Origin: Podarcis erhardii
Lineage: Eukaryota
Length of the DNA stretch: 64,000 nt
Assembly (NCBI GenBank): GCA_964252035.1
Contig: OZ176213.1
Reading direction: 5' to 3' (one strand)
Part shown: positions 17,695-63,225 of the stretch, in pieces
How the letters are laid out: every line of letters starts with the position of its first letter
Position numbering within the stretch: position 1 is the first letter of the stretch
The notes under the pieces: model-generated
Told to the model about the DNA's origin: nothing
What the model saw: only the letters and a program-made list of their open reading frames with translations
Databases searched by the model: none
Program-made: the position numbers and the translations under genes

Positions 17695-18885
<1,191 letters not shown>

Positions 18886-24088: not shown

Positions 24089-24442
<354 letters not shown>

Positions 24443-28662: not shown

Positions 28663-28971
<309 letters not shown>

Positions 28972-29522
28972 TAGCGCATTGTGAAGGGGAAGGCTGGCTG
29001 CTGGCTTACATGAGCCTTAGTCTGATCTAGCTTTCACTGTTCACTTACATTCAGATGTTGCTTGTTGTGATGCTACTAGGTGTCTTATAAGAACCATTGT
29101 TACTCACCCATGCCAGCATTGATTCCCTCCTCTTACCCAGACTCTCTTGGGTGGGTAGGATAATGTTTTTTTTTTTTTTAAATTCTTTTTATTAAGTAAC
29201 TTTTAACATAACACAAACTTCATCAAAACAGAAAAGACGAAAAAACATTTAAAGGAAAAACAAAAAGAAAAAAAGGAAAAAAAAGAACACATAGTGCAAC
29301 TACTCACTATCCCAATAACAAGTGAGTTTAAAAAGAAAAACAAGCACAAAGAAAAAAGGCAAAAAGGCCTAGAAAAATACAAAAAGGTGTGGAAAAGAAA
29401 CATAGAATATACAACAATTGACACATATCGCCTGACCTCCTTCCCTACTGAATTCGGGTTCCCAGTTTTACTAGATTCCTTTTAACCGCTGGTGTTGGTA
29501 TCTATCTTGTACACCGGAAGTT

Positions 29523-32500
29523 TTAAACTGAACCTGCTATAGTTGGTAAGTTTCTAAAATTACTTTCAATATAAACCATAAATTTGTTCCAATCGTCATT
29601 TAACTTTGCATTTTTTTGATTTCTAATTCTTTGCGTCATTTTTGCTAATTCGATGAAGTCATATAGTTTAGTTTGCCAATCCCTCACTGTTGGTATGTTT
29701 GTACCTTTCCAATTTTGGGCGATTAGCATTCTGGCCGCTGCTGTTGAATATTGGAATAGGGTTTTGTCTTCATTTTTTATCTCATCTCCAACCATCCCAA
29801 GTAAAAAGGCCTCTGGTCTTTTTGGGAATGTGTATCTGAGTATTTTTTTTAACTCGTCATATATCTGATTCCAAAATTTTTTCGTTACCTCACATGCCCA
29901 CCACATATGTATGAAATTACCTTCTTTTATTTTACATCTCCAACAGGCCTTGTTTCCAGTCTTGTACATTCTACTTAATTTTTCTGGTGTTAAGTACCAT
30001 CGGTAAATCATCTTTTCTATATTTTCTCTAATTGCAGCGCTTGCCGTGAATTTTATACCCTCACTCCACAATTTTGTCCACTTCTCGTATTCTATGTTAT
30101 GCCCCAGATCTATCGCCCACTTGACCATGACTTCCTTAATTTCTTCGTCTTTTGTATCCCACTCTAGTAATATATTGTACATTTTAGACAATAATTTAGA
30201 ATTACTTTCAATTATTTCAATCTGGAATTTTGATTTCTTTTCACTCATTCCTGCTTTTTTATCCTGCGTCCATCTTGCGTTGATCTGATGGTACTGTATC
30301 CAACCCGTCAGCTTCTCTTTTAACTCCTCATATGGTCTTAGTTTCCAGCCGTTTTGGGATTTGACTAGTAGGTCTTCATATGTCAGTCTCTGATCTTCCT
30401 GATTTATTTTTTTAATTGTCAAGATATTTGTTGGGGATAGCCACCAGGGTGTTTTCCCTTCGAGCAATTTTTTGTTTTTTTCCCAGACTTCATACAGGGG
30501 TCCTCTGATGATGTGGTTCGAGAAACCTTTATGAGCTTTCTCTTTATTCGACCAAAGGTAGGCATGCCAGCCAAACCTATTGTCTGCCCCTTCGAGGTCT
30601 AATAAGTCTGTGTTTTCCAAGGTTATCCAATCTTTAACCCAGCACAAACTAGCCGCTTCGTAATATAGTTTCATGTTAGGGACAGCCAGCCCTCCTCTCT
30701 CTTTTCGGTCCGTGAGTAGTTTAAACCTAATCCTTGGTCTTCTTCCCCGCCATATAAATCTCGAGAGGGTTTTCTGCCAGTCTTTGAATATTTTGGATCC
30801 TCTAATAACAGGAATATTTTGAAACAAAAACAGCATCTTAGGGAGTGTATTCATTTTTATAGCTTCCATCCTGCCCAGCCATGAAAGGTTAACTCTACTC
30901 CAAACATCCAGGTCTTTTTTGATTTTGTTCCACGTTGCCGAATAGTTATCTTCAATTAAATTTATATTTTTTGGTGTGAGCCATATTCCTAAATACTTTA
31001 TTTTTTTTGTCACTTTGATTCCATACTGTCTCTCCAGATTTTCTTTTGTGTCTCTGCCCAGGTTCTTTATCATCATTCTAGTTTTGGATTTATTCAATTT
31101 AAAACCAGATAGCCTGCCATACTCATCTATGACCTCCAGTGCTCTGCCCAAACTTCCTTGCGGCTCTTCCAGGGATAACATCAGGTCGTCCGCATAAGCT
31201 TTCAGTTTATACTCCTTAGACCCTATTTTTATCCCTTGTATCTCAGGCGTTGATCTTATTTTATTTGCCAAAACTTCTAACACTATAATAAATAGGAGCG
31301 GGGAGAGGGGGCACCCCTGCCTAGTTCCTTTCTCAATTTTGAATGTATTTGTAAGATTATTATTTATTACCAGTTTGGCGGATTGAGTCGAGTATACTGC
31401 CTGTATTCCTTTCATAAATTCACCCTCTATCCCTACCTTTTCTATAGATTTTAATAGGAATGACCAGGAGACGTTGTCAAACGCCTTCTCAGCATCTATG
31501 AAAACCAAAGCCGCTGGGATGTCATTATTGATCTCCAGGTGTTCGATTATGTTTATGACCTGTCTCACGTTGTCTTTCAAGAGCCTATTTGGCAGGAAGC
31601 CCGATTGATCTTTTTGAATTAAGTTTGTTAAACATTTTTTCAGTCTGTTTGCCATAATATCCGCGTAAATTTTATAGTCATTGTTAAGCAAAGATATTGG
31701 CCTATAGTTCTTCATATTCAATTTATCTGTGTCTGCTTTATGAATTAATGTTATAAAGGCTTCCCTCCAAGATTCGGGTATTTTCCCTCCTCTCAAGATG
31801 TTATTCATAGTATCACAGAGCGCAGATGTCAATTGATTTCCCAAAACTTTATAATATTTGGCCGAGAGACCATCCGGTCCTGGTGCCTTACCTAATTTCA
31901 TTTTTTTTATTGCATTCTGTATCTCTTCTATATTTATGGGTCTATTTAATTGGGCTCTTTCTTCTTCTGTGACAATCTTCCCTTTGCAGTTCGCTAAGTA
32001 TCTTTCTATTTTAATTGGGTCCTCTTCCCCTTTCTTGTACAGCTCCTCATAAAATTTAAGAAAGTTATTTTGTATTCTTTTTGGATCTACTATCAGTTCT
32101 TCCTCCACCATTATTTTGTTTATCACATTTTGCTTTTGTCTTTTTCTCAGCTGCCAGGCCAAAAATTTCCCTGTTTTATTTGCCGATTCAAAGTATCTTT
32201 GCCTCATTGACTTGATTTTCCATTCGATTTCTTGATTCGTTAACATCGAGTATTGTGTTTGTAGTAGTTTCATTGTTTGTAGGCTATGTTCGTCTTTCGG
32301 ATTTTCTATTAATTTTTTCTCACACTCCCTTAGCTGTTTGAGAACTTCCTCCTTCTTTTGCTGTCTTATTTTCTTCCTATAGTTATTTTGCTGGATAAAG
32401 AAACCTCTTAAAACCGCTTTGCTGGCGTCCCACACCACTTCCATGTTTGTTCCTGTATTAAGGTTTAAGTCGAAATATTCTTTTAAGGTGGCTTTGGCTT

Positions 32501-33275
32501 TTTCGATGATCTCATCATTGTCTAATAAATATTCGTTCAACCTCCATCTAAAGCCCCCCTGTAGTGTACCTTTTATTTCCAATGTTATAGAATTGTGGTC
32601 CGAGAGAGTTCTCGGTTGGATTTCACATTTCGTGGTCCTTAAGGTGAGTTCCCTCGAGATCCAGACTTGATCTATTCTACCCCAGCTTTTGTGTACTTCT
32701 GAGAAAAAGGTAAATTGCTTTTCTGTTGGATGCTTGTGCCTCCATATATCTATTAAATCCATATTTTCTTCCAAGTCCTGAAATGATTTAGGTAACTTTC
32801 CTTGGTTTCGCTTTCCCTTATCTGATTGCCTATCTATTTCTGGAACCGGCACCGCGTTGAGGTCTCCCGACAATATTATCTTGTCATTTCCTAAATCTAA
32901 GATCACTTGTTCTAATTTCCTAAAACATTCTGACCTATTTGAGTTTGGAGCATATATGTTTATCACATTAATCTTTTCCCCCTGAAAGTTAATTTGGATC
33001 CCCAAAATCCTTCCCTCTTCATCCTTATAGATCAGTTTAGGTTCCCATTTTTCATTGACATATGTTATTACTCCTTTTTTTTTCTCTGCCGTAGAATTTA
33101 TAAATTCTATTCCTAATCTCTTATTTACTAGAACATGCTTGTGCCTTTTGGCTACATGGGTCTCTTGAATACAGATTACATCCAATTTTTTCTTTTTCAA
33201 CACATTTACAATTTTATTCCTTTTGGTTTTTTCGTTCAGACCGTTTACATTCCATGTTAGAATCTTAAGATTCAT
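29523..33275 (-). CDS. L1 ORF2p (APE endonuclease, reverse transcriptase, C-terminal CCHC), 1250 aa, uninterrupted
   Basis: APE motifs TWNVNGL, IQETH, GDLN, RIDQ and SDH. RT motifs KAPGPDG, YRPISLLN, DAEKAFD, RQGCPLSP, YADD and KYLG. Zinc knuckle CWRCKIKEGNFIHMWWAC (CX2CX8HX4C). Confidence 0.97.
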   Translation of the reverse strand: MNLKILTWNVNGLNEKTKRNKIVNVLKKKKLDVICIQETHVAKRHKHVLVNKRLGIEFINSTAEKKKGVITYVNEKWEPKLIYKDEEGRILGIQINFQGEKINVINIYAPNSNRSECFRKLEQVILDLGNDKIILSGDLNAVPVPEIDRQSDKGKRNQGKLPKSFQDLEENMDLIDIWRHKHPTEKQFTFFSEVHKSWGRIDQVWISRELTLRTTKCEIQPRTLSDHNSITLEIKGTLQGGFRWRLNEYLLDNDEIIEKAKATLKEYFDLNLNTGTNMEVVWDASKAVLRGFFIQQNNYRKKIRQQKKEEVLKQLRECEKKLIENPKDEHSLQTMKLLQTQYSMLTNQEIEWKIKSMRQRYFESANKTGKFLAWQLRKRQKQNVINKIMVEEELIVDPKRIQNNFLKFYEELYKKGEEDPIKIERYLANCKGKIVTEEERAQLNRPINIEEIQNAIKKMKLGKAPGPDGLSAKYYKVLGNQLTSALCDTMNNILRGGKIPESWREAFITLIHKADTDKLNMKNYRPISLLNNDYKIYADIMANRLKKCLTNLIQKDQSGFLPNRLLKDNVRQVINIIEHLEINNDIPAALVFIDAEKAFDNVSWSFLLKSIEKVGIEGEFMKGIQAVYSTQSAKLVINNNLTNTFKIEKGTRQGCPLSPLLFIIVLEVLANKIRSTPEIQGIKIGSKEYKLKAYADDLMLSLEEPQGSLGRALEVIDEYGRLSGFKLNKSKTRMMIKNLGRDTKENLERQYGIKVTKKIKYLGIWLTPKNINLIEDNYSATWNKIKKDLDVWSRVNLSWLGRMEAIKMNTLPKMLFLFQNIPVIRGSKIFKDWQKTLSRFIWRGRRPRIRFKLLTDRKERGGLAVPNMKLYYEAASLCWVKDWITLENTDLLDLEGADNRFGWHAYLWSNKEKAHKGFSNHIIRGPLYEVWEKNKKLLEGKTPWWLSPTNILTIKKINQEDQRLTYEDLLVKSQNGWKLRPYEELKEKLTGWIQYHQINARWTQDKKAGMSEKKSKFQIEIIESNSKLLSKMYNILLEWDTKDEEIKEVMVKWAIDLGHNIEYEKWTKLWSEGIKFTASAAIRENIEKMIYRWYLTPEKLSRMYKTGNKACWRCKIKEGNFIHMWWACEVTKKFWNQIYDELKKILRYTFPKRPEAFLLGMVGDEIKNEDKTLFQYSTAAARMLIAQNWKGTNIPTVRDWQTKLYDFIELAKMTQRIRNQKNAKLNDDWNKFMVYIESNFRNLPTIAGSV

Positions 33276-33328
33276 TGTCCCTTTTAACTAACAATAAGTC
33301 AGTAATCTAACAGTAGTAAATTATCAAA

Positions 33329-34390
33329 TTAGATTCGGGTGGTTTTGTCCTCTGTTTCTTCTTCCTCCTGGCCTGCTTCTTCCCCCTCTGTCTCCTCCCC
33401 CTCCCCCTCCCCCCCTCCCCCCAACCCCCCACCCTCCCTCTCCCTTCCCTCCATTCCTGCACCGGCCGTCACTTCTCCTTCTCCACTCCTCCCTCCGACC
33501 TTCTCCTCCACCCCCCCGAGATCCTTATCATATCTGCGTAGAAATTTACTGATTTCCTGATTGTCCGTTATCCTGAATCTTTTCCCCTTGTAGAAAAAGG
33601 AAATCCCTTCAGGGAATTCCCATCTGTGTTGTATACCATTCCTTTTTAAAATGTTGACTATCTGTTTGTAACCCTCTCTCTTACGGAGGAGTCTAATTGG
33701 TATTTCTTTGAAGATGATGATTGGTCTTCCATCAATTACCAATTTCTTCTGGTAACTTTCCCTTAAGATTATGTTTCTCATCTCTATTGATTTAAAAATC
33801 ACTAAGCAATCCCCTGGGGCCTTTTTCAGTCTGTTATGTTTGGGTCTTATTTTTATCCTGAATACATTTTCTATCGATTGGGCAACTTCCTCTTCACTCA
33901 GTGCAAGCCATTTCGCCAGTTCTTGGATCATTTTCTTTCCGATATCTTCCTCCGTCTCTTCTCCCACTCCTCTGAATTTTAGATTTAACTGTTTTTGTTT
34001 CATTTCCATCATTGCTAAATTATCCAAAACTTGGTCTTGGCTCTTACTTAACTCTCCGAAATTTTCCTTCAATCTCACAGCTTCTTTTCTCTGGTCCTTC
34101 ATCTCCTTTTGTATTTTTTTATTTGAGTCTTCTAGGGATTTTGTTCGAGTCGTGAGTTCATTTATTCTGTTTGACATTTCCCCTACGATCCCCTCTAACT
34201 TCTTATCAAAAGATTCCTGCATCTCTCCTAACTTTTTTTCTATGTGTGTCTCATTCTGTCTAAATTCCTCTTTTATTTTCAGCCACAGAGCATCTAGATC
34301 TCTGATTTCCTCTTGTTTTGAGGATTTCCTCTCTATTGGTGTTCCTGTTGACTTCTTCCCATCCTTTCCCGCCATCTGCCCAGCCCACAT
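33329..34390 (-). CDS. L1 ORF1p (coiled coil, RRM-like and CTD-like regions, Gly/Glu-rich tail), 353 aa
   Basis: Heptad-rich N-terminal half. NLKFRGV.E and I.IFKEIP...LRKR..Y..I...LK..GI...W.FP segments are typical of vertebrate L1 ORF1. It lies 53 nt upstream of ORF2. Confidence 0.88.
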   Translation of the reverse strand: MWAGQMAGKDGKKSTGTPIERKSSKQEEIRDLDALWLKIKEEFRQNETHIEKKLGEMQESFDKKLEGIVGEMSNRINELTTRTKSLEDSNKKIQKEMKDQRKEAVRLKENFGELSKSQDQVLDNLAMMEMKQKQLNLKFRGVGEETEEDIGKKMIQELAKWLALSEEEVAQSIENVFRIKIRPKHNRLKKAPGDCLVIFKSIEMRNIILRESYQKKLVIDGRPIIIFKEIPIRLLRKREGYKQIVNILKRNGIQHRWEFPEGISFFYKGKRFRITDNQEISKFLRRYDKDLGGVEEKVGGRSGEGEVTAGAGMEGREREGGGLGGGGEGEGEETEGEEAGQEEEETEDKTTRI

Positions 34391-37300
34391 CCTCCCTCCC
34401 TCACACTTTCAATTGTACAGAAATTTGATAGTCTTTTGGCTCTCCCCTAGGGGGCGTACAATCTTGGATACTTAATAATCTCGGTGGGAGATACTAAACT
34501 GCCCTTTGGGCAGGGCAAAATATCGTTACTAAATCTTATGTATGGTAGCCTGTCCCAACCGGCTCTAATTCAATTCCCTTTTTGAGGTTAAAGCATACAA
34601 TCACAGTTTATAATCGTACATATATGTAGAGGTACTGTAATTAAGAGAGGGGAAACCTGGAGGGAAAAAAAAAAAAAAAGAAAAAGAAAAGAAGAAGAAG
34701 AAAAAGAAGACAGGGGGCAAAAAGGGGGAGAGAGAAGAGAGGAAAAGACCAAGGGGGGGGGAAGGAAAAATAAAACGTCTTTTTTCCGATTTTTAAGCAC
34801 GTCAGGGGGGGGGAGGGGGATGGCCGAGGAGGAGGAGAGAGTTCAGTCTCTCGAGGTATGACGATCCGCCATGGGGAGAAAAAAAAAAGGAGAACTAGGT
34901 CTTCACTGCGCGTGCTGGTCTTCACTACGCGGATTAATTCTCAATATGTTGCTGTGTCCTTTATCGTTCAGCGGGGGTACTTAAAGTCCGGCGAAATAGC
35001 TGCCCAGCGAGAATAGATACTGGGGTGTTGTTTATGTGCAAGTTTTTACGAGTGACTGTCCTCCCGCAGTTTGCCGAATATGAAAACGGGGCGGAAGAAA
35101 GCCGGAACCGCTAGCGAAGCAATGGGAGGGGGAGTCACCCCTTCGTTCTTATCCACTTTTTCCTCTCCCCTTCCTCTCCCCTTCTACTTTTTTCAGCTTC
35201 CAAAATATCGCTTCCTTACACTCTTGCCAGCTTTCTTTATAAACCGTCCTTTCTAATGCCCCCCTGAACTGCCGATAACGATACAGAGTCTCTATCGATG
35301 CAAAGTCTCTAAGATTTCTTTCTAAATCAGTTACTTTTCTGCTTGGTTACTTTTGCCCCGTGACACTTCCAGCGGGGACTATCCCTTCCACGTTATACAG
35401 CGGGTGAGTAAAAGTTTCTTTGTTTCACTCCTCCGGTGCTAGTCCCAGCGCCATCTTAGATCCGAAATACAGGTCGGGCTCCTTAACTTAATCTGTTAAC
35501 ATCCATCGCTCCTTGGGCTCTATTGTCCGAAATAGCTCCAATATTTAACACTCAGTCCCGAGGGCGACTGTTCTTAAGGTTACGGAGATTTGTCGCCACT
35601 CTCAGTGAGAGCTAGAGGCATCGCTGCACGGGGCCCGCAGGACTTACCGAATATGCGTCGCTCGGTCCCGTCATACCCAGGTTTCCTCCACGAAGCAGGA
35701 AAAACCCAGAAGAACTCCAGGACCCCTCCGACGCTGCCGTTTGCGCTTCCCTCAAGGGGGCCCCCCTTGAGGTTTTTGGGGTCGCAGTGCCTTTGCGTTG
35801 CCCCTCAATAGCCCCGTGCAGTTCAGCGGAGTTGCGCTGCAACTTCACCGCGCTCCCATCCTGCTGGCGATCCAAACCGGAAGTAGGATAATGTTTTTGG
35901 GGGCTACGTTACCATGGTGGAAAGTTGCCCGGGCCACATTCCCAAAGTGAGCAGGGTCAAATCCACATACAAACACTCCCTTAGCAAACACAGAATTATG
36001 CGCCAACATACCCGCAAAGCTATTTCCCATGGAAACAGAGGCATCCTTAGAAAAGCCACTCGTTTTACCTTCCATTTTTCTTCATAGATTTTATTTTTTA
36101 TAATGCTTGAAAAGAAAGAGTTTTCCAGCACCCTCTGTGCAAAAGGAAAATCAGCAACCACCACTCAGTCAACGCGCAGCTGAACTGCAAGCTCTGCCTT
36201 GCAGCTCCTTAAATTTTCAGATTTAAAAAAAGCAATTGCATCCCCAAAACTTCATGCATGCAGTTGCAAAATGCATAGGCTACTTTTTGGATATTTGCCA
36301 GGATCACAACTCTACTGAGACATTTCCCACTCAGATGCCTTGCATAGGACATCAATGCCCTTTCTGCTCCCCTGGACAACTAGGCCCCCCAGAGGGCAAT
36401 ATGAAATTTTGGCCAGATGTGACCTGCATACAGGAGTTGGCATGTCCCCAACCACACTCTGTGATCTGGAGAGGTGGATAGTGGTTTGAAAGCCATCCAA
36501 TGAATTTTTTGGGAATTTTTATCAAATTGATTTCCTTCCTGTCCACGATATGATAGTGCCTCCTTTGCTCTCTCTGCAGTTTTGGGGGAGTGTTTGAACC
36601 ATCTAACCCTGTTCAGTGTGCCTCCCAGTCATAAGAGCACTTAATGTATATGAGTCATCCCATCTTTCTTTTCAGTTTTTCTGCTGCTGTCCTTGATGCT
36701 ATAGGAAGGCTCCACTGGGCTGTAGGTGGCAACATATTTTTTCTCCCGACAAAATGCAGATATTCTCACTAATGAGCTTCTGTAAACAAAGCAGTTAGCC
36801 ATTTTCACATAGTTTGTCAGCTGGTGTTGTATAGGGCTAGAGGCAATATGTAGCATTTTGGAGCTCTTGAGTGGTTCTTGTGTCTTCGGGAGTTGCTGAC
36901 CACACAGAAGAACCTTCAGTTGGAGGGGCAGAGAGGGGACAGAAAAATGCACCCTGAGTCTTTGAGAGACTTGCCTAACCAAGCAAGTTTGGTGCCTGAG
37001 ACAGAATTTACAGATGGGGTACTCTCAGTAGTAATGATCAATTGCTACATAATTGGTTGGTATTGCTGCCCTTTCACGGTACCCCAAAATCAGCTGACTT
37101 TGCTGATGCCTCTAAATTAGGAGGATTTGCTTGTGGATTTCCCTTAAATTAACACCTGTGAACACATGACAGATCCAGCTAGCCCAGAATAGTCTACACA
37201 GACTGAGAATGGCTCTCCAGACGTCTTTCGCAGAGGTCTTTCCTACCTTTGTAACCTGGAGATGCTGGCAATTGAACTTGAGAAGCCTGTCTGCTACTCC

Positions 37301-40744: not shown

Positions 40745-40984
<240 letters not shown>

Positions 40985-62339: not shown

Positions 62340-62632
62340 TATTTATGCATATTTTTTTCAATGTCACTTGGAGACTCTTTGGCTGACAAGTGAACAGTAA
62401 GTTTAACATCTAATAAAATTACTAGCATATATTTAAATGTGCAAAGAGTTTTGTGGCCATCATTTAGGTACAGGACGCAAGTGAGGAGCTCTGTGCAAAT
62501 AACACAGAGCCAACACACTGGGATTCCCCGCCTGCGTCAAGAAGATCCGTCCAAGCGGGAAAACTGGCCCTCGCCCTCCCCCCTGGGGAAAACCTTTGCC
62601 TCCAGCGGTGCCGCGACTTTGATTTCACTCAC

Positions 62633-62762
62633 AGCTGCTACTGCGATCCCCGTGGTCTGTGCTGCAATGGCGGTGGCCTTCCTGGCGCTCTTGAACCCTT
62701 CGCTACCGCAGGTCGACAGGGTCAAGGCGACGTTCTCATGCGAGGTGATCAGGATGTGAGTG
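62633..62762 (-). CDS. MRPS11: Mitochondrial ribosomal protein S11 (uS11m), internal exon, 130 nt
   Basis: Encodes THILITSHENVALTLSTCGSEGFKSARKATAIAAQTTGIAVAA, the uS11 CGxEGF..A+K.T..AAQ motif. Acceptor cttccctccttgcag| and donor |GTGAGT. Upstream exons lie beyond the window. Confidence 0.93.
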
Positions 62763-62869
62763 CTGCAAGGAGGGAAGAGAAGAGGGCATGGTTTCCACAC
62801 TTCTGTCACGTCACTCCTCGCTTGCCTTTTCTCTAGACTAAAAAAAAACCCAAATGCTGTAACCTCACA

Positions 62870-63225
62870 GCGGAAACTGCTCCACCCCCTTCGTCATATA
62901 CCTGAAGGAGCATCTCCACCCTCATCGTTCAGCCCAGACAGTGAGATCCAGCTCCGAGGGCCTTCTGGTGGTTCCCTCACTGCGAGAAGTGAGGTTACAG
63001 TGAACCAGGCAGAGGGCCTTCTTGGTAGTGGCACCCACCCTGTGGAACACCCTCCCACCAGATGTCAAGAAAATAAACAACTATCTGCTTTTCAGAAGAC
63101 GTCTGAAGGCAGCCCTGTTTAGGGAAGTTTTTAATGTTTGATGTTCTATTATGCTTTTAATAATGTTGGGAGCCGCCCAGAGTGGCTGGGGAAACCCAGC
63201 CAGATGGGCGAGGTATAAATAATAA
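62870..63225 (+). mobile_element. L2-type LINE 3' end
   Basis: Homologous to the reverse complement of 745-1250 and ends in gtataaataataaa. Confidence 0.7.

Follow-up and report, generated by a model that had tools for sequence, protein, structure and literature searches.

The L1 element and its host locus

The window is a 64,000-nucleotide stretch of contig OZ176213.1 from the Podarcis erhardii assembly GCA_964252035.1. It contained a full-length L1 retrotransposon inserted antisense within the last intron of DET1, between an exon ending near 28907 and one starting near 40850. The DET1 exon frames were recognised with Pfam, to which 70 of the 206 frames of the window were submitted. The same search gave a weak match to Ribosomal_S11 at 62540-62893 on the minus strand (E 7e-4, below the cut-off), which is possibly a ribosomal protein exon or retrocopy. 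The features of the locus were as follows.

17695-18885, 24089-24442, 28663-28907 and about 40850-40984, plus strand: DET1 exon frames
29165..35884, minus strand: full-length intact L1 of the long-5'UTR lizard clade-1 type
29523..33275, minus strand: ORF2, 1250 aa, with APE endonuclease and reverse transcriptase domains
33329..34375, minus strand: ORF1, 348 aa, closest in the databases to the ORF1 proteins of lacertid L1s
35885..35898, minus strand: 5' copy of a target-site duplication of ~14 bp, the 3' copy lying at ~29155-29168

The element was intact, as the initial annotation had stated: it began at 35884 (5' end), held ORF1 at 34375-33329 and ORF2 at 33275-29523, and had its polyA signal at 29193. 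The two ORFs, the endonuclease and reverse transcriptase domains of ORF2, the polyA tail and the target-site duplication identified it as an L1-clade non-LTR retrotransposon. The leader from the 5' end to ORF1 measured 1509 nt, and ORF1 was up to 75% identical to L1 proteins of lacertid lizards. The start GACTTCCGG and the long leader, with its conserved 5' part, placed the element among the lizard clade-1 L1s as these are characterised in the available text of Boissinot and Sookdeo 2016 (PMC5381506). The Anolis elements described there share with it the long 5'UTR and the start GACTTCCGG, a 5' part conserved between divergent families, two CpG-rich segments and a pyrimidine-rich 3'UTR.

Splice-like signals in the leader

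An intron had been proposed within this leader, and most of its signals were confirmed in the window copy. The donor TCG/GTAAGTC had its GT at 35647-35646, 237 nt past the 5' end at 35884, the acceptor CCCTCCAG/G ended at 34657, and the interval between them was 991 nt, as claimed. The AG-free polypyrimidine zone was also real, with a length of 122 nt and a pyrimidine content of 94%. The positions were as follows.

35642..35648, minus strand: donor-like G/GTAAGT, a U1-complementary site within a junction of the fold described below; clade-specific
35449..35457, minus strand: a motif that we take to be YY1-like, inside the proposed intron and the sole one in the leader
34801..34805, minus strand: CTGAC branch-like motif; not conserved, with an AG between it and the acceptor
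34657..34778, minus strand: AG-free polypyrimidine tract ending in CAG, acceptor-like; position not conserved

The CTGAC motif was found at 34805-34801 as described, but its role as a branch point was not upheld. No AG should lie between a branch point and its acceptor, and here an AAG intervened at 34780; the closest relative, L066, read CCGAC in place of CTGAC. The only branch-like 5-mer within the AG-free zone was a weak one, TTTAT at 34774. With unfitted splice-site matrices, the acceptor scored 15.8 in the window copy versus 8.6 in L066, and its unusual strength was due to a private poly-T run. The T at donor position +6 was also unique to the window copy, the other clade copies listed having C.

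Splicing had been expected to preserve the CpG-rich 5' end of the leader. Most of the CpG-rich promoter would instead be lost, as 47 of the 71 CpGs in the leader were intronic together with the only YY1-like motif. A consensus for this motif appears in the accessible part of PMC5381506, where it is placed at the start of the element, whereas here it lay at +428. Removal of the interval would reduce the uORFs of the window copy from 9 to 4. No depletion of ATG was found in the would-be exons of this leader relative to the intron, the density per kb being 6.8 in exon 1, 6.6 in the intron and 8.1 in exon 2 (~5.9 without the ORF1 start codon). The donor was partly base-paired in single-sequence folds.

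Search for spliced genomic copies

L1 proteins normally copy the RNA that encoded them (cis preference), so a spliced main mRNA should leave spliced copies in the genome unless this preference has been lost. In the human case, as given in the portion of Larson et al. 2018 (PMC5860796) consulted, L1 RNAs spliced within the UTR yield both proteins and are retrotransposed in cis. When the lizard's own genome was searched with DNA and with ORF1, 140 loci were recovered, 138 of them with ORF1. A recognisable 5' end was present in 99 of 139 copies, the window copy included, and their leaders measured about 1030-2225 nt, against about 500 nt expected of a spliced leader.

Copies lacking exactly the GT-AG interval, which the initial annotation had named as a check, were sought genome-wide. 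None of the 53 clade copies spanning the donor was spliced, a count that is still compatible with a rate of ~2%. If 10% of copies were spliced, 0/53 would have a probability of 0.004, which rules out such a share; at 1.8%, the human rate of spliced integrants (SpIREs), the probability is 0.38 and the result fits. No deletion bounded by a conserved donor and an AG was seen among 119 5'-end-bearing copies of the wider family or among 22 deep-lineage copies. An all-versus-all comparison of the copies revealed internal deletions, none of which was bounded by GT and AG.

Pattern searches gave the same picture. A scan of the whole genome with a pattern built on the end of exon 1 gave 47 matches, versus 3 with the reversed control. 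All 47, each already in the set, ran on into the “intron” (45 with GGTAAG, one with GGTAGG and one with GGCAAG), so that, of the 53 clade copies known, the pattern recovered 47. A second pattern, built on the 5' terminus, had 91 matches, 18 of them new, and none broke at a conserved donor; nor did any of 12 short or rearranged 5'-end copies.

Several candidates for splicing were rejected. L120 lacked ~1070 nt, yet both donor and tract were kept. The large UTR deletions of L070, L081, L108, L121, L126, L154, L205, L220 and L255 had ends that were not GT-AG. One further candidate, L213, had a 3' break ahead of a weak GT. The starts of 5'-truncated copies did not cluster at acceptors, L115 alone beginning 5 nt before one. 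A metagenome scan with ORF1 produced 121 pattern matches, of which none was confirmed. Contigs from three runs of one sample, compared with 33300-36000, contained no junction of 35648 with 34656, but 34653-34715 was passed over there as a repeat and one row of junctions was omitted, so the result does not bear on splicing. As a separate observation, L205, L212, L215, L219 and L220 carried a short 5' end (57-290 nt) fused to distant or unrelated sequence with no splice consensus.

Conservation of the donor-like motif

Conservation of the donor across the family, a check suggested in the initial annotation, held for the clade. GGTAAG was present in 51 of 53 clade copies; among the 28 representatives of the clade, 26 had it at +237, where 0.21 were expected. 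In 43 copies (8 truncated or deleted ones of 51 were left out), 27 of the 554 6-mer windows of the conserved 5' module were as conserved as the donor, which ranked in the top ~5%. The G preceding it was invariant even in lineages without the donor. Because of these equally conserved windows and this G, the motif could also be explained by an RNA structure or a DNA-binding site.

Outside the clade, the donor was absent from the homologous site in all 24 outgroup and all 12 deep representatives. The outgroup instead had GTRAG near +475 in 42 of 48 copies (GTRAGT in 39 of 48), a site that the clade has lost. Of the 24 outgroup representatives, 16 had GTRAGT at +430-510 (1.6 expected), as did 10 of the 12 deep ones (0.55 expected) and none of the 28 from the clade. 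The deep set comprised 22 copies, found through a protein 43% identical to the window ORF1, after 2 of 24 motif matches that were not terminal had been left out. Its members had GTRAGT at +430-475 (16/22) or CAG/GTA at about +177 (18/22), and either one was present in all 22. Over the lineage representatives, 10-26 donor-like motifs were observed versus shuffle expectations of 0.1-1.6. The lineages are related, so the counts are not independent and a few events lie behind them; the gain at +237 and the loss at +475 may be one event. The base at +3 switched between A and G among lineages and the exon-side bases varied, which is the pattern that pairing with U1 would be expected to leave. On these comparisons the donor side looks to be under selection.

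Acceptor and pyrimidine tract

The acceptor side behaved differently. The branch motif was not conserved, and neither was the acceptor in its position, as the AG turned over even within subclades. Long pyrimidine tracts marked subclade A1, to which the window copy belongs, and were kept within it, but the AG position was not fixed there either. The lizard 5'UTRs in the available text of PMC5381506 are described as devoid of low-complexity regions, in contrast to these tracts. The longest AG-free zone ended in YAG in 17 of 19 A1 representatives, versus 11 of 24 in the outgroup and 3 of 13 3'UTRs. This was rejected as support for a real acceptor since the A1 rate matched the genomic background: 23/30 zones in A1 versus 25/33 in ~526 kb of flanking sequence plus the window, a background that may include true host acceptors.

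When the best acceptor was compared with local shuffles by the unfitted matrix, q<0.1 was reached in 6 of 19 A1, 0 of 9 A2, 1 of 24 outgroup and 0 of 12 deep representatives. Acceptor strength in A2, the outgroup and the deep lineages was about that of the shuffles (median q about 0.55), and A1 acceptors appeared modestly above controls. The tract is likely a low-complexity expansion containing cryptic acceptors.

Two other conserved elements were noted in these leaders. At many loci, L076, L123, L133 and L162 among them, a ~24-nt box with a predicted 5-bp hairpin lay 375-760 nt upstream of ORF1, in the middle part of the leader, which could not otherwise be aligned. Some lineages had the box in tandem duplicate, while the window lineage and the L071-L082 group had lost it. 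A C-run/G-run inverted repeat, 50-110 nt upstream of ORF1 (about 34465-34435 in the window), was shared by the subclade and by several copies of the outgroup.

A structured RNA domain at the 5' end

The first ~300 nt of the element form a covarying, predicted pseudoknotted RNA fold on the sense strand, and this is the firmest finding of the study. Its parts were located as follows.

35587..35878, minus strand: structured 5' RNA domain of ~300 nt (element nt 7-298), from minimum free energy (MFE) and covariation
35812..35821, minus strand: inner long-range helix, 5' strand (nt 64-73); double changes in 9 of 10 pairs
35624..35633, minus strand: inner long-range helix, 3' strand (nt 252-261), lying 14 nt into the proposed intron
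35788..35792, minus strand: hairpin loop (nt 93-97) in the predicted pseudoknot; 97.8% of cells paired
35616..35620, minus strand: pseudoknot partner (nt 265-269), within the proposed intron
35587..35596, minus strand: outer helix, 3' strand, closing onto the element 5' end (35878-35867)

The MFE of the first 300 nt had a z of -4.14, and none of 200 shuffles was equally stable. In ten other lineages the 5' fold gave z from -1.9 to -8.9. Structure past nt 300 was weak (window z +1.0, +1.6, +0.1 and -1.7). An alignment of 46 lineage representatives, made without structural guidance, gave a consensus fold of 42 pairs, of which 24 had double changes. The 23 pairs spanning the donor were paired in 96.9% of cells, with double changes in 14, versus 39-53% in slid controls, and their covariation score was reached by 0 of 500 shuffles.

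Phylogeny-aware controls were applied to 45 sequences, L104 having been dropped for a misregistered ORF1. On a tree built from ORF1 only, the inner helix had 20 compensatory branch events versus 0.5 expected from matched column pairs. The helix cells contained 172 G-U versus 28 A-C, which favours the sense RNA as the folded strand; purine and pyrimidine sides were interchanged in two pairs, an exchange that CpG decay could not generate. The compensatory changes thus exceeded the phylogeny-aware controls on the transcribed strand, as in a conserved structured RNA. For the predicted pseudoknot (nt 93-97 with 265-269), one pair was found as AU, GC and UA, although the number of pairs with double changes was not above shuffles (111/500).

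A homologous domain of 73 pairs, 39 with double changes, was present in 12 sequences of the deep families; both halves of the pseudoknot were chosen there by pattern, so this check was not an independent test. At E<=10 the domain had no match to any Rfam covariance model, HDV-like and R2 families included, the three chance-level hits in 34300-36000 all falling outside it. In this structure covarying helices joined “exon 1” to the opening 60 nt of the “intron”. The closing helices and the pseudoknot straddle the donor, and splicing at +237 would therefore remove all their 3' strands.

At the 5' ends themselves, 42 of 81 copies carried an extra G directly before the consensus start, versus 24 of 81 for one base further out. 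Such a G is consistent with cap copying, and would fit 5' ends that were capped and not self-cleaved.

Proposed function of a probably unspliced leader

Since the fold extends across the proposed splice site and none of the copies proved to be spliced, the “intron” probably stays in the RNA. Every genomic copy examined kept the 991-nt interval, which is unlikely to work as an intron. The explanation to which we give about an even chance of being right is that the unspliced RNA serves both as mRNA and as template, and that it has a structured 5' domain and a putative U1 site guarding against premature polyadenylation. One capped, unspliced RNA would encode ORF1 and ORF2 and be copied through cis preference. 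Its GGTAAG near the promoter would bind U1 snRNP for a purpose other than splicing, and this binding would silence internal polyA sites (telescripting). Downstream of the motif the window copy had 14 internal AATAAA sites, in a transcript of 36% A. Splicing to cryptic acceptors in the low-complexity pyrimidine tract, if it occurred, would be an infrequent dead end. Kaida 2010 and Almada 2013 are said to be studies of telescripting. The suppression of premature polyadenylation by U1, as summarised in the consulted part of PMC10760643, resembles the present case in that a promoter-proximal 5' splice site lies upstream of many internal polyA signals; it was shown there for intron-containing genes, and is here only proposed for an intronless retrotransposon. 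Escape from HUSH was set aside as the purpose of the donor, because in the accessible text of PMC8770142 protection by introns did not require the 5' splice site.

The folded domain would be a protein-binding cis element, and by analogy with R2 its most likely role is in L1 RNP assembly or 5'-end integration. L1Tc Pr77 is reportedly an HDV-like ribozyme that overlaps an internal promoter. The lizard domain overlaps the internal promoter as in Pr77 but differs from it and from R2 in being multibranched and ~300 nt long. As described in the available part of PMC12222951, R2 also has a pseudoknotted cis-acting RNA at an end of a non-LTR element, the pseudoknot of R2Tg being in the 3'UTR.

A possible though rather unlikely alternative is that the splice-like sites are incidental and cryptic. 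The hexamers would persist through overlap with the DNA promoter or with structure, the fold would be real and unrelated, and U1 pairing would be unselected. The human donor offers a precedent, having been retained because it overlaps a RUNX3 site (PMC5860796, in the part consulted). The same source gives SpIREs as ~1.8% of full-length copies, which 0/53 fits (P 0.38). The background rate of YAG ends in A1 tracts (23/30 versus 25/33) agrees with incidental sites, and some GTRAG occurred in about 86% of shuffled 690-nt leaders. Three features argue against them, namely U1-type motifs at three or four fixed sites that differ by lineage, the toggling of +3 between A and G beside variable exon-side bases, and the mutual exclusion of the +237 and +475 sites in the samples.

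The initial annotation had envisaged a retrovirus-like split in which the spliced RNA is the main ORF1/ORF2 mRNA. In its fullest form, a regulated retained intron with the fold as a packaging signal lost on splicing at +237, this is improbable. The packaging signals of retroviruses straddle the major donor, and here the fold does so as well; the conserved donor, the mostly YAG-terminated A1 tracts and the fall from 9 to 4 uORFs in the window copy also point this way. However, the split was not borne out by 0/53 spliced copies, unconserved acceptors and branch points, or ATG densities of 6.8/6.6/8.1 per kb, with no fewer ATGs in the exons; helices that straddle the donor would be broken, and L1 cis preference would have to be lost. 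Moreover, in the outgroup the fold ends before the donor is reached and would survive splicing, and no spliced outgroup copies were seen. Similarly doubtful is the variant in which the clade-1 5' domain would be an ancient packaging signal into which the donor moved, splicing then dividing mRNA from template pools in place of cis preference. A precedent on the side of retention is Penelope, whose 5' intron is spliced yet persists when the element transposes (Schostak et al. 2008, PMC2377424, in its accessible part) and which, as here, has splice signals in the promoter region that survive the process. That intron is 75 bp long with conserved donor and acceptor, and RT-PCR found it spliced in most transcripts, whereas the lizard acceptor is not conserved and its splicing is putative.

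It is very improbable that somatic splicing, or splicing to distant acceptors in ORF2, the 3'UTR or host exons, serves self-attenuation through non-coding RNAs that are seldom copied: this would fit a conserved donor without a conserved nearby acceptor, but 0/12 short or rearranged 5'-end copies broke at a conserved donor and 47/47 exon-1 matches continued unspliced.

Relation to known elements

Splice sites in L1 5'UTRs, retained Penelope introns and structured R2 and L1Tc RNA ends are already known. Vertebrate L1 5'UTRs are usually viewed as fast-turning DNA promoters. The human L1 (PMC5860796, available part) resembles the lizard element in its conserved donor in the promoter region, in the prevalence of unspliced RNA and in that a spliced copy would lose promoter sequence. 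It does form SpIREs, whereas 0/53 were found here, too few copies to exclude 2%; the lizard donor-like motifs, in addition, change position by lineage, and the donor lies within a covarying RNA domain. In the available text of the Anolis clade-1 study (PMC5381506) the words “splice” and “intron” have 0 occurrences and no 5' RNA fold is described. No description of an intron or a covarying fold in a squamate L1 5'UTR was found in the main texts of the openly available full-text literature. A conserved structured RNA leader with a recurring U1-type motif is apparently undescribed so far.

The 5' end of these lizard L1s has been strongly selected as a folded RNA over lineages whose ORF1 is only about 43-60% identical. 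The fold is a candidate cis element by which L1 proteins recognise their own RNA or finish copies of it. Donors that recur close to the promoter, with no conserved acceptor to match, suggest that a U1 site may be maintained in intronless retrotransposons as a means of escaping premature termination. The strong splice consensus of one copy was not sufficient to establish an intron.

L1 activity and distribution in the genome

Many divergent L1 lineages with open ORF1 and ORF2 copies were present genome-wide, and some ORF1 DNA was identical between copies, which indicates that several L1 families have probably been active recently in this genome. The 30-Mb contig C19 held an outsized share of the L1 matches, from many families; this load suggests a low-recombination or sex chromosome. 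At L092 and L093 (C3:12264800-12282651), an L1 was inserted beside a tandem satellite array of ~186-bp units, and its first 768 nt were duplicated 10 kb away.
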